Positions 15,601-18,600 of a stretch of DNA of 21,014 nucleotides are shown piece after piece. Made by a program: the position numbers. The DNA lies in IMG/VR virus record IMGVR_UViG_2671181012_000009, positions 1 through 21,014 of that record. The stretch is one strand, 5' to 3'. The DNA is from a virus (lineage: Duplodnaviria > Heunggongvirae > Uroviricota > Caudoviricetes). Within the stretch, counting starts at the first letter, position 1; each line of letters begins with the position of its first letter.

Positions 15601-18600
15601 TTATCAGCATCCGTCGCTCATGAATGCCAGTCATGAATCGTGATGTTCTGCCGGAGGCTGTATGTCCCCTGATTACGTTCAGATGGAGATGCCTGCCAGG
15701 TACAGCCAGGCAGATTCAGAGTGGATTAAGCGGCAGTTACAGAGCCTGCCTTCCTCACTGAGACAGAAGGTCGCCCTGAAATACGCGGAGGTTTACGAAG
15801 TTACTTTTGATTCCGAGCCTGTTTCATTCCGTAAGGAGAACAGAGCGAGGCATGAAGCCAATGTACGGCTGCGCAGGTTCGTTGAAACACACGGGCGTGC
15901 ATTACAGGGGTATACGACTCAGCCGCCCCTGGCAGGAACGCAACAGCGTACCTGAATGGTGTTGGTCTTAAAGGTGACCGACGGGCTGAGACCCCACTTC
16001 TCAGGATGCACCTGTGTACTACCAAACTAGTGCGGTCATTGAGAGGGGGGGTAAGGGGGGGGTGCCCGTGTGTTAGTGCGAAGCACTGGAACGGGATCTT
16101 CCAACAGACGGGTACAGAGGTTAGGTAGATCTCGATCTAAAGGGGGGCACCCCTGAAAAAACGGCTGCATCAGCAAACTAGTACATCATGGTTAAAATAT
16201 GAGTGCTGAACTGAAACTGGTACTAATCAACCTTCTGGAAGAGGAATTCGGACATGGAATGGACAAGGTCACATTCGACTACGTTCTGCAAAAGAAAATC
16301 AAATCCCTGGGCTGTGAGTTGCAACGCTGTTTCACTGTCAGGCTGAAAGGTGATCGCAAGGGATTTATCGATCTTCTGGTTATTTCTCCCGATGGTCAGC
16401 GTTGCGCAGTTGAGGTGGATAACCGATCGCCTCGTCAGCGTTCACTGATGAAGATTCGAGCGCTTCCTGAAGGCATTTCGGGATTTGTTTTTCTCCGTGA
16501 TGGCAAACATCCACAGCGTTATATCGCCGATGGTGTGGATGTCATCCGGGCGACCCGGTTTAAGTAATCACTGTATCAGCCCTGTCATCGGGAGAATACC
16601 ATGCTGAATATCAAGCCGAATTTTGCTCAGGAACGTGCGCTGAATATGTTGCGTCATGACTGGAAAACATATCAGTCCTTCATGATGTACATGCCTACAG
16701 GGAGTGGTAAAACTGGCCTGGCGGCGTTCATCACTGCTGGTCTGGTAAGCCGTGGCATGCGCGTTCTGTTTGTCGTTCCTTATACCATTTTGATCAACCA
16801 GACAGCACAGCGCTTTGTTCAGTACGGGCTTTCCGGGGATGAAATCAGCTTTATCTGGCGTGATCATCCCAATAACGACCCGTCACGACTGATTCAGATT
16901 GCCAGTGCGGATACGCTGATTCGCCGTGATTTTCCTCAGAATATCGACCTGCTGATTATTGATGAAGCGCATCTCCGTAAGCGCCGCATCCTCACGGAAA
17001 TCGAACGACTGGTTGCAGAGGGAAATGTGAAGGTGATTGGGTTGTCCGGTACACCCTTTTCATCGTTCCTGGGGCGTTATTACCAGCGTCTTCTCAAGCC
17101 GACCACTATAGGGGAACTGATCCAGCGTGGCGAACTGAGCAATTACGAATTTTATGCGCCCACGAAACCGGATCTGGAAGGTGTAAAAACGAAAGTCTCA
17201 ATGGAGTACGGCAGGGATTACGACGAATCACAACTGGCAGAGATTATGTGCGGCGCGGATCTGGTTGGCGATATTGTCGATAACTGGCTGTGTAACGGAA
17301 GGGATTTACCGACAGTGGCGTTCTGCGTCAATAAAACGCATGCCAGCTTCGTGACCATGCAGTTCAACAAAGCCGGAATTAACGCAGAGGTGATGGTTGC
17401 TGAAACGCCACATGATGAGCGTCAGTTAATGATCAGTCGTTTTGAAACGGGAGCGACGAAAATCATTGTCAGCGTTGGCGTTCTGGTGGCGGGATTTGAC
17501 AGTGATGTCCGGTGCATCATTTACGCACGCCCGACAAAATCAGAGATTCGCTGGCTTCAGGCGATTGGGAGAGGATTGCGTACAGCGCCAGGCAAGGAGT
17601 CATGCCTGATTTTCGACCATTCCGGTACGGTTCATCGCCTGGGATTTCCTGAAAATATTGAGTATGACGAACTGCCCGGCAAAAACGACGGGATGCAGGT
17701 GTCATCATCACGTGGTAACGAAATTCGGGAAGAAAAACTGCCGAAAGAATGTCCGGGGTGTCATTTCATGAAACCGGCAGGTGTTTATGTCTGTCCGAAA
17801 TGCGGATTTAAACCGCTGGCTGGTGAGGATGTGAACACAGATACCCGCCGCAATATCAGGAAACTCAGCAAGGACGAAAAAATTTACACCAAAAGCGACA
17901 AACAGGCCTGGTGGAGTCAGATCAAATTCTATCAGCGTCAGCGTGCCTCTCTGGGGCGACCGGTCAGCGATGGATGGTGCGCTCACACTTTCCGGGAGAA
18001 GTTCGGCGAATGGCCTGACGGGCTGAGCAGTTTTCCGATGGAAATCACCCCGGAGGTCAGTAATTACATCAGACACAAATTCATCCGGTTTGCCAGAGGG
18101 CGTAGCCGGGCAGAGAAGATGACGGAAAAATCCCCCGAAGCGCTTTCTCTGTCCCTGCTTCATGGTGTCCGGTCTGGGGTGCCGGAAGGCAGTGAGTCGT
18201 GGCAGATCATGCAGGCAAAGCAACAACTTCAGAAAAACAGAAACAGTCTGGGTCAGTAAGATGAAAACAGCAGAAGCAGCGAAAGGCCACTGGCCTGAAA
18301 TTTTAAAACATTACGGACTGCCGCCAGTCACGGGTAAAAAGCACTTCAAAGGGGAATGTCCGGTTTGTGGTGCCAGAGGTAAGTTCCGTATTGATGACCG
18401 TGATGGCACCGGAACGTGGATCTGTGTTTGTGGTAGCGGTGACGGCATGAAACTGATCGCTCTGACACAAAAAAGAGCGTTTCATGAAATTTGCGCTGAA
18501 ATAGACCGCATCACGGGGAATGAATACCGGAGAGATAAACCGCCTGTGATCTGTACGTCGGAAAGCCTGAGATCGCGCGTTCAGCGTCGATTTTCAGCGC

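Follow-up and report, generated by a model that had tools for sequence, protein, structure and literature searches.

What does a spacer with two long runs of G do ahead of the helicase and primase genes of a lambdoid prophage? The spacer in question is 243 bp long and occupies positions 15956-16198 of IMG/VR record IMGVR_UViG_2671181012_000009, a 21,014-nucleotide stretch of tailed-phage DNA that was analysed whole and is called the window below; it is a lambdoid prophage with a match of 100% identity in Escherichia coli JNEC-KY174. The spacer separates a 97-aa gene (p97) from a 122-aa gene, behind which lie the helicase and primase genes, and database records call the region intergenic and its flanking genes hypothetical. 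An initial annotation had drawn attention to the G-runs and to 9-bp direct repeats that bracket them, and had considered a replication origin with protein-binding repeats, a small structured RNA, a slipped-strand phase-variable promoter and a mini-insertion. Comparison of loci identifies the spacer as one copy of a conserved cis-acting non-coding element, present at over 200 loci in phages and prophages of Enterobacterales. The element measures about 250 nt, or about 290 nt counting its downstream partner, and most plausibly it helps to start phage DNA replication or controls the helicase-primase genes. We found no description of it in Rfam or in the searchable literature, where nothing came to light on phage G-quadruplex or R-loop origins, on the origin of phage Fels-1 or on the element's literal motifs; on this showing it is previously undescribed.

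Conservation and linkage of the element

The close set comprises 158 loci, assembled from two pattern scans of viral contigs, one of bacterial genomes, and annotated records. The same spacer stands at the same position in Salmonella phage Fels-1, in Escherichia phage phi467 and in many E. coli prophages, as well as in the Klebsiella phages KPP5665-2 and ST16-OXA48phi5.3, and all genuine genome matches belong to Enterobacterales (Yersinia, Citrobacter, Pseudocitrobacter, Enterobacter, Serratia, Trabulsiella and Superficieibacter). The core of the element (16063-16140) is 87-95% identical to its counterparts in Fels-1, phi467, KPP5665-2 and others, whereas in the same comparisons identity is 59-83% for p97, 66-72% for the 122-aa gene and 72-77% for the helicase. 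Because the non-coding core is better conserved than the genes that flank it, the element is under selection of its own.

Its company is equally regular. The p97 gene lies upstream at 153 of 158 loci and the helicase downstream at 155 of the 157 that could be tested, both exceptions being one deletion remnant seen twice; the primase was found at 120 loci, where the contig reaches far enough. The 122-aa gene is an optional passenger, present at only 60 of the 158 loci, and in Fostie, YP3, ENT39118 and ST11-VIM1phi8.3, which do without it, the element directly precedes the helicase. Since the 122-aa gene is dispensable, the unit consists of p97, element, helicase and primase. The element is a precise marker of this module, which belongs to lambda/HK97-like temperate phages of Enterobacterales.

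One carrier is filed under another name. The 42.9-kb 'plasmid' p16773_5 of Enterobacter asburiae (locus L206; NZ_CP083847.1) is a complete HK97-like phage genome carrying the element, with integrase, terminase and tail genes, and is probably an excised or induced prophage that was assembled as a circle. The plasmid collection yielded no minimal replicon with the element, only one excised phage assembled as a 'plasmid' and large plasmids with integrated copies.

Anatomy of the element

The features below all belong to the sense strand, the one read from the rightward early (PR) promoter and, as we propose, the one through which the element works. CAAACTAGT is the 9-bp repeat.

15933-15954 (+): hairpin H0, CAGGAAC...GTACCTG, over the 3' end of p97, stop codon included
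15961-15982 (+): hairpin H1, stem GTTGGTC/GACCGAC with an 8-nt loop TTAAAGGT (15968-15975)
16015-16034 (+): dyad H2, TGTACTA (site 1) and inverted TAGTGC (site 2), overlapping the first CAAACTAGT
16041-16062 (+): polypurine tract with twin G-runs, GAGAGGGGGGG-TAA-GGGGGGGG
16062-16115 (+): three-way junction P3, closing helix GTGCCCG (16062-16068)/CGGGTAC (16109-16115)
16075-16087 (+): mini-hairpin AGTGC-GAA-GCACT, 5-bp stem and GAA triloop closed by C-G
16099-16107 (+): invariant motif TTCCAACAG, from alignments of the close families
16119-16139 (+): invariant GGTTAGGTAG, then the palindrome TAGATC-TC-GATCTA
16142-16161 (+): GC hairpin of variable sequence (GGGG..CCCC, holding a G6 run) and an A6 run
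16174-16185 (+): second CAAACTAGT with TAGTACA (site 3, 16179-16185)

The polypurine tract and its G-runs

Read directly, the tract ends in G7 (16045-16051), TAA (16052-16054) and G8 (16055-16062), and a further G6 at 16142-16147 sits inside AGGGGGGCACCCC (16141-16153), all as the initial annotation had placed them. Its remark that such runs are rare holds within the window, where these three are the sole runs of six or more G or C in 21,014 bp, and so does its recognition of a G-quadruplex motif: GGGGGGGTAAGGGGGGGG is the window's sole match to the canonical pattern of four G-tracts of at least three, with loops of 1-7 nt. The G4Hunter score reaches its maximum of 2.52 at 16040; the sole stretch at or above 1.5, approximately the cut-off for this score, is 16032-16062, and values elsewhere do not exceed 1.32. 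Random sequence of the same composition is expected to hold about 1.5 runs of at least seven per 21 kb, so that a single long run is unremarkable, and it is the adjacent pair, conserved in more than 200 loci, that is remarkable.

The runs form part of a larger pattern, a purine-only stretch of at least 20 nt that ends in a G-run, after which come T(A/T)N and another G-run; the motif flanking them is part of the dyad. A census of the family gives G6-TAA-G6 in 74 and an interrupted form, GGAGGGGAGGGGGAGGAG, in 55, the others having 4 to 9 G; in family B the tract reads TTTTTATGGGGAAGAGGGAAAGGGGGG. At all 158 the G-runs are on the sense strand. The comparison with related prophages that had been suggested as a check did reveal variation in tract length, from 6 to 8 G among E. 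coli prophages about 98% identical to the window (run pairs 6/7, 7/7, 8/7 and 8/8, against 7/8 in the window). Such freedom of run length fits a need for G-richness or hybrid stability, and not for a reading frame or a promoter spacing; no small open reading frame (ORF) across the G tract is conserved in frame, as the run lengths vary.

More distant relatives separate what is essential to this pattern from what is not. With a helicase representative 53% identical to that of the window, 79 further loci were fetched, 69 of which have p97 upstream at 38-63% identity to the window protein. Among the 65 upstream regions that are distinct, twin G-runs in a purine context mark the sense strand of 62, for example GGGGGAAAGGGGG and AAGAGGGGGGAAAGGGGGGAGA, and the antisense strand of none; the mean G4Hunter maximum for these 62 relatives is 2.25. 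The GAA-loop hairpin and GATC palindromes come after the G-runs here too, and the H1 hairpins, TTCCAACAG and GGTTAGGTAG are altered or missing. As the G-runs are kept where other core motifs have changed, the twin G-run in its polypurine tract is the most deeply conserved feature of the region.

The bracketing repeat fares differently. Exact copies of CAAACTAGT are indeed present at 16023-16031 and 16174-16182, by direct reading and by repeat search, but by simple arithmetic about 0.1 such 9-mer pairs are expected by chance in 243 bp, which puts the pair only marginally beyond chance, and relatives do not keep the 9-mer itself. Conservation applies to TAGTAC, twice in direct orientation, with an inverted GTACTA just upstream of the first copy. 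CTAG is rare in the window, with 12 copies in 21 kb, yet two of them lie in the spacer (16027 and 16178); GTAC occurs five times within 15900-16250.

A covarying fold on the sense strand

The best evidence of base pairing comes from H1. Across 62 distinct versions of the hairpin the loop is invariant (UUAAAGGU), and 84.7% of cells are paired, a share that falls to 30-52% in controls with slid partner columns; in 106 cells both sides are changed, and none of 500 shuffles did as well. Because G.U (in DNA, G.T) wobbles are frequent and A.C few, the fold is on the sense strand. Seventy-five loci have one copy of H1 and 76 have two. There is no second H1 elsewhere in the 21-kb window, and hence no twin at the leftward early (PL) promoter. 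The stems of H0, in alignments judged by eye, differ by family (CAGGAACG/CGTTCCTG; CGGATC/GATCCG).

In the dyad, whose two halves may pair, GTAC-N10-GTAC keeps a fixed 14-nt spacing in most families, the window form being GTACTA-N6-TAGTGC; the GTAC cores never vary, and one C-G compensation is found, in locus L017. Site 1 (TGTACTA, 16015-16021) is also 100% complementary over 7 nt to site 3 (TAGTACA), 157 nt away, and these two sites covary in loci L051 and L059 (GTACCAG/CTGGTAC, the outer pair being T-A vs C-G).

Downstream of the G-runs, P3 encloses TGTT/AACA, the GAA mini-hairpin and GGAA-N7-TTCC (16088-16102). In 29 sequences of family A, folded with RNAalifold and scored by counting pairs, 98.4% of cells are paired, against 29-48% when slid, with compensatory changes at four pairs in few lineages. 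For the closing helix, support also comes from a swap test in several families (GGAGTTG/CAACTCC, GGAGTTG/CAGCTCC and CCTG/CAGG); C.A mismatches occur in the Fels-1 group. The junction also folds with DNA parameters (z = -3.05). Within it, the mini-hairpin lies at a fixed 12-14 nt past the second G-run and has the alternative stems AGTGC/GCACT, AGCCC/GGGCT (32 loci) and AGCGC/GCGC around an invariant C-GAA-G. C-GNA-G mini-hairpins, the d(GCGAAGC) class, are very stable as DNA and are reported at the priming sites of phage G4 and RSF1010 ssiA and in N4 promoters (PMC13037366). The position of the GC hairpin is filled in every family, by eye, with a different stem (GGGCA..TGCCC, GGGCC..GGCCC, GGCG..CGCC, AGGGG..CCCT), and no T run follows it on either strand.

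Overall, RNA folding of the element gives z = -3.26 for the sense strand vs -1.49 for the antisense strand. Folds had to be derived family by family: in an alignment of 120 sequences, clade structure drowned out global mutual information, and 38 sequences of mixed families folded with RNAalifold yielded nothing beyond H1, the dyad and a G-tract:CUUUUCC pairing that does not covary.

GATC sites and a possible long-range pairing

Three GATC sites fall within 43 nt of the core (16095, 16128 and 16134). Over 120 distinct sequences, the core of about 100 nt holds 1.9 GATC on average vs 0.30 in dinucleotide shuffles, a roughly six-fold enrichment, and distant relatives carry a GATC palindrome, AGATCGATCT, with a spacer of 0-2 nt. 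This is the kind of cluster looked for at an origin or promoter under Dam/SeqA control.

The core also has a complement further along. TCTTCCA (16097-16103) is complementary to TGGAAGA (16236-16242), which lies inside the 122-aa gene, where codons 12-15 carry the conserved CTGGAAGAG (16235-16243). A complement of the invariant CTTTTCCA is present at +117 to +146 in nearly all families, with one variable position that is C-G in the window clade, U.G in most, U-A in L087 and L177, and a U.U mismatch in 9 loci. From these complementarities, a pairing is possible between the core (C)TTTTCCA and TGGAAGAG, some 130 nt further on.

Two observations concern the loci that lack the 122-aa gene. TTCTGGAAGAG, which is coding at 16232-16243 in the window, is kept there as non-coding sequence (L052, about 3544-3556; L205, about 2357-2368), and is either a remnant of the 5' end of the 122-aa gene or the long-range pairing partner. 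A 19-codon ORF (MKTTSQNYYLITAGSAQCS) precedes the helicase in the same relatives (L052, about 3630-3690; L205, 2448-2507), and its stop codon overlaps the helicase ATG (ATGCAGCTGA), an arrangement that suggests a leader peptide or translational coupling.

A possible transcript-primed origin

With confidence somewhat short of even, we favour the reading that the spacer specifies a structured primer precursor, the transcript of an R-loop origin, analogous to ColE1 RNA II or to the mitochondrial conserved sequence block II (CSBII). That widespread temperate enterobacterial phages, Fels-1 among them, start replication at a transcript-primed R-loop/G-quadruplex origin of this kind is a possibility that we put forward tentatively. 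In such a scheme the transcript from PR would fold into the H1 and H2 hairpins and the P3 junction, and its purine-only tract, ended by the G-runs, would pair with the C-rich template in an RNA:DNA hybrid of unusual stability. The G-rich strand thus displaced could fold as a G-quadruplex, possibly reinforcing the hybrid. The R-loop would then open the duplex just upstream of the replication genes and provide a 3' RNA end, while the displaced strand would show its C-GAA-G mini-hairpin, as a single-strand initiation signal, to the phage primase. Primase and a branch-specific helicase of superfamily 2 (SF2) would turn the R-loop into a fork, p97 might join them in this conversion of hybrid to fork, and the GATC cluster might couple firing to the state of Dam methylation. 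Observed directly are the parts of the element, their conservation, their tie to the module and the asymmetry between strands; the hybrid, its priming and its activity as an origin, like any part played by p97 or Dam, are inferred, with support from what is established for the origins of ColE1, mitochondrial DNA and T4.

Several observations converge on this scheme. An origin of the iteron/DnaA type, such as lambda ori, P1 oriR or oriC, would have DnaA boxes, an AT-rich unwinding element and at least three directly repeated units of 15-22 bp. Only short two-copy repeats occur in or beside the spacer, no DnaA box (TTATCCACA, up to two mismatches) lies inside 15956-16198, and no O-type initiator is recognised in the module; an unconventional origin is therefore needed somewhere in it. 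The origin proposed in the initial annotation is compatible with the evidence and, taken together with its small structured RNA, near to the reading preferred here. The element does present a G-rich non-template strand downstream of a PR-like promoter, with no terminator predicted between, and, at 16075-16087, a C-GNA-G triloop hairpin of the kind that serves as a single-strand initiation signal. The sense-specific covarying folds (H1, P3 and the GAA hairpin) point to RNA or to a displaced sense DNA strand. The strand asymmetry of G-runs that have no pyrimidine partner, the C-GNA-G hairpin and the GATC palindromes with zero spacer are more natural at the level of DNA or of a hybrid. The helicase, being RadD/UvsW-like, is of a class that acts on branched DNA and R-loops, and no hexameric ring-shaped replicative helicase.

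Other observations weigh against a transcript-primed origin. No clear AT-rich unwinding element is present in the spacer, which offers only a 6-nt A run. In the largest family P3 has a weak closing helix (GGATT/GATCC, -4 kcal/mol), and in the L051 group, where there is no 5' partner, it has none. GATC and GTAC are self-complementary, and their enrichment could reflect RNA stems instead of Dam or protein sites. The covarying helices, tolerant of G.U, and the possible long-range pair can be read at least equally well as regulatory RNA. Cumulative GC skew in a complete related phage follows the direction of transcription and cannot place the origin, which could lie elsewhere in the module, for example in the helicase or primase genes or in the region of the 288-aa gene.

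Alternative explanations

The strongest competitor takes the element as the structured leader RNA of the replication operon, a riboregulator with no direct role in initiation, whose folded sense transcript would control how the helicase-primase mRNA is translated, stabilised, processed or prematurely terminated; we consider this rather doubtful. Candidate switches are the pairing of site 1 with site 2 or with site 3, and of TTCC with the local GGAA or the distal TGGAAGAG, and the single-stranded purine/G tract might be a platform for a protein, for the ribosome or for an RNA G-quadruplex. The small structured RNA of the initial annotation is likewise compatible with the evidence, the spacer being a strongly conserved, folded sense-strand element tied to the helicase-primase module. 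A leader RNA accounts for the helices at least as well as an origin does: the strong covariation of H1 with its G.U pairs, the compensatory variants in P3 and the GAA hairpin, the three mutually complementary TAGTAC/GTACTA sites with the joint change of sites 1 and 3, the C-G, U.G and U-A states of the CTTTTCCA complement, and the lower fold z of the sense strand all speak for it. The element is, moreover, certainly transcribed if PR reads through, and the promoter/terminator scan predicts no terminator before it and no promoter-like site or terminator in the spacer.

A leader RNA explains less well the polypurine tract, the mini-hairpin class and the GATC palindromes. The tract, at least 20 nt of purines only, has no pyrimidine partner in the element; perfect palindromes with a spacer of 0-2 nt, such as AGATCGATCT, make poor RNA hairpins; and the distance to the start codon, 15-25 nt for the 122-aa gene or 130-410 nt for the helicase, varies in a way unusual for a translational switch. 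RNA G-quadruplex motifs are generally avoided in bacteria, which also counts against this explanation. Among 4227 Rfam models run over the whole window at gathering thresholds, only sok and two naRNA4 copies were found, all elsewhere, and a permissive scan of 15700-16400 gave chance-level eukaryotic matches only (E = 0.045 and 7.9), with no family for the element even at E < 10. A scan for tRNA and tmRNA found none in the spacer. An oop-like antisense RNA was considered as well and rejected, no minus-strand promoter or terminator having been found.

A purely double-stranded protein-binding region, operator or classical origin, for which no transcript is needed, is unlikely. Here p97 or host proteins would bind the TAGTAC/GTACTA sites and the GATC palindromes, and the G tract would adopt H-DNA or a G-quadruplex; the three TAGTAC copies do form a dyad plus a distal site, and the six-fold excess of GATC palindromes and the two CTAG in a window otherwise poor in them are in keeping with this. 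Against it, the covariation of H1 and P3 with G.T wobbles and few A.C indicates selection on the sense strand alone, the strict strand asymmetry of the G-runs is not required of a double-stranded site, and iterons and DnaA boxes were not found.

Processive antitermination, with H1 as a nut- or put-like site bound by a phage protein (possibly p97, which is rich in arginine) or by RNA polymerase, so that transcription from PR would run through to Q, is decidedly improbable. H1 resembles boxB in having an invariant loop on a short stem of free sequence, and, like nutR and putR, it comes after the cro-position gene in the early rightward transcript; p97 has an invariant basic helix (RxENRARHEANxRLR), and no N-like gene is recognised in the window. 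A lambda nut site, by definition, has boxA and a boxB with a GNRA-like pentaloop, occurs in both early operons and requires N protein. The element, by contrast, has an 8-nt loop of other sequence with no GNRA-like pentaloop, no PL-side second copy in the 21-kb window and no N-like protein among the early ORFs, and its candidate boxA (CGCTCCTGA) is not conserved in the window clade. Distant relatives lose H1 yet keep p97, G-runs and helicase; no terminator is predicted in the spacer; and the G tract, GAA hairpin and GATC cluster would go unexplained. The put RNA of HK022 is about 70 nt long with two stems, lies downstream of both PL and PR, and acts on the zinc-binding domain of the RNA polymerase beta-prime subunit (PMC9378689). 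At the level of sequence, blastn finds no similarity to HK022 or to other lambdoids outside the module, and H1 has no PL twin, though no comparison of structure with put was made.

A phase-variable promoter, or a mini-insertion with a 9-bp target duplication, is scarcely credible: G-run length does vary among close relatives and the exact repeat exists, but no promoter-like hexamers or -35/-10 pair flank the tract and no conserved ORF crosses it, the A-interrupted form in 55 loci cannot slip, and the bracketed segment, far from being polymorphic, has no empty site in 158 loci, is the most conserved part of the locus, lacks terminal inverted repeats and owes its repeat to the conserved TAGTAC set.

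Comparison with known systems

If the element is a transcript-primed origin, a close analogue is that of ColE1/pMB1, where the structured RNA II of several hundred nucleotides needs G-rich RNA on a C-rich template for a persistent hybrid, the displaced strand has a priming signal, and no iterons or initiator are needed. The element likewise has a G-rich sense strand, hairpins upstream of its G tract and no iterons. It differs in having no sequence similarity to ColE1 and, as far as was found, no antisense gene or promoter of the RNA I type; its transcript is the leader of a phage operon mRNA, and the phage encodes its own SF2 helicase and Toprim primase. In human mitochondria, CSBII (G6-A-G8) at the heavy-strand origin makes the replication primer by way of an R-loop or hybrid G-quadruplex. 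Two long non-template G-runs 1-3 nt apart and polymorphic in length are common to both (G7-TAA-G8 in the window, 6-8 G among relatives), while polymerase, host and flanking elements are different.

The T4 origins oriF and oriG are R-loop origins formed from phage transcripts, and the SF2 helicase UvsW acts on origin R-loops. The helicase of the element's module matches UvsW (E = 6.5e-5) and RadD (E = 7.5e-20). T4 origins, however, have no G-run or polypurine tract, they need a middle-mode promoter and a DNA unwinding element, and UvsW turns origins off and does not fire them. At the Neisseria pilE locus, a G-quadruplex works through transcription across the motif and an R-loop on one strand, with a cis-acting small RNA; there it triggers recombination for antigenic variation, and its sequence and context are unrelated to the element. 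The retroviral polypurine tract forms an RNA:DNA hybrid that resists ribonuclease H and primes DNA synthesis. The likeness to the element, as in the family B tract, is compositional only (a U/T-rich stretch, then a purine-only tract ending in G6), and no reverse transcriptase is involved at the element. With the GNA initiation signals of phage G4, RSF1010 (ssiA and ssiB) and the N4 virion RNA polymerase promoters (PMC13037366), the mini-hairpin shares its 5-bp stem and its GAA/GNA triloop closed by C-G. Those signals mark places at which single-stranded DNA is the starting template of a primase or polymerase; in the element the hairpin sits within a larger junction and could be a plain RNA stem.

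Were the origin reading true, the element would be the missing origin of a common HK97/lambda-like helicase-primase module (Fels-1, Shiga toxin-producing E. coli and Klebsiella prophages) and would represent a type of phage origin not yet described. It would be a tractable bacterial counterpart of primer formation at mitochondrial CSBII and in ColE1, and, among Enterobacterales, where such motifs are otherwise avoided, a rare instance in which a G-quadruplex/R-loop motif is positively selected. Were it instead a regulatory RNA, it would define a new class of structured RNA, of about 250 nt, that controls phage replication genes. Under either reading the G-runs, the H1 loop, the GAA hairpin and the GATC sites are handles that bear on prophage induction, copy-number control and the function of p97.

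Genomic context

The order of genes around the spacer is as follows.

14663-15370 (-): LexA-like repressor
15377-15405: PR-like promoter, from the promoter/terminator scan
between the PR-like promoter and the p97 gene: 69-aa gene in cro position
15662-15955 (+): p97, 97-aa gene, phrog_852 (ORF; PHROG match 1.7e-39)
15956-16198: the spacer, between the p97 gene and the 122-aa gene
16199-16567 (+): 122-aa gene, phrog_1347
16601-18259 (+): SF2 DEAD/DEAH helicase, RadD/UvsW-like, with a C-terminal four-cysteine zinc ribbon
18261-19229 (+): Toprim/zinc-ribbon DNA primase, N-terminal part P4-alpha-like (Pfam, PHROG)
downstream of the primase: 288-aa gene, Q, then hok/sok

The p97 protein has no Pfam family, and a sequence-profile search of PDB gave no match either; its structure model is poor, with a predicted local distance difference test (pLDDT) value of 59, too weak for a fold search. 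The family alignment shows an invariant basic motif, SxRxENRARHEANxRLRxFV..HGRAxQGYTxxPPL, which includes the helix mentioned above. In YP3 and Fostie, p97 is the first annotated gene past the divergent repressor promoter, i.e. it takes the cro position. The helicase has the Pfam domains ResIII, DEAD and Helicase_C, and its PDB matches are the RadD structure 6jde and, weakly, the T4 UvsW structure 2oca, with the E values given above; labels in phage records vary, some calling it 'type I restriction enzyme EcoKI subunit R'. The primase matches Toprim_3, Zn_Ribbon_Prim and DUF7146 in Pfam and phrog_510, DNA primase, in PHROG.

A few further observations concern the window at large. Within the 122-aa gene, between element and helicase, there is a hairpin resembling a terminator, with a T-run after it (TCCTGAAGGCATTTCGGGA TTTGTTTTTC; 16465-16483, plus strand); it could be due to chance or be an internal attenuator. 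In the leftward operon, a helix-turn-helix protein (14200-14577, minus strand) matches the PHROG 'CII-like regulator' phrog_4836 at 3.1e-28, so that the functional analogue of cII may sit on the PL side and not at the 'cII-position' gene. Two tandem naRNA4 elements of the repetitive extragenic palindromic (REP) type (RF02564; 6467-6543 and 6581-6657, both plus strand; 62.9 and 76 bits) lie upstream of the early-left region of the prophage. At the other end, the sok antisense RNA (Rfam RF01794; 20627-20801, plus strand; 103 bits) stands beside a Hok/Gef gene, forming a hok/sok toxin-antitoxin module downstream of the prophage Q antiterminator gene.

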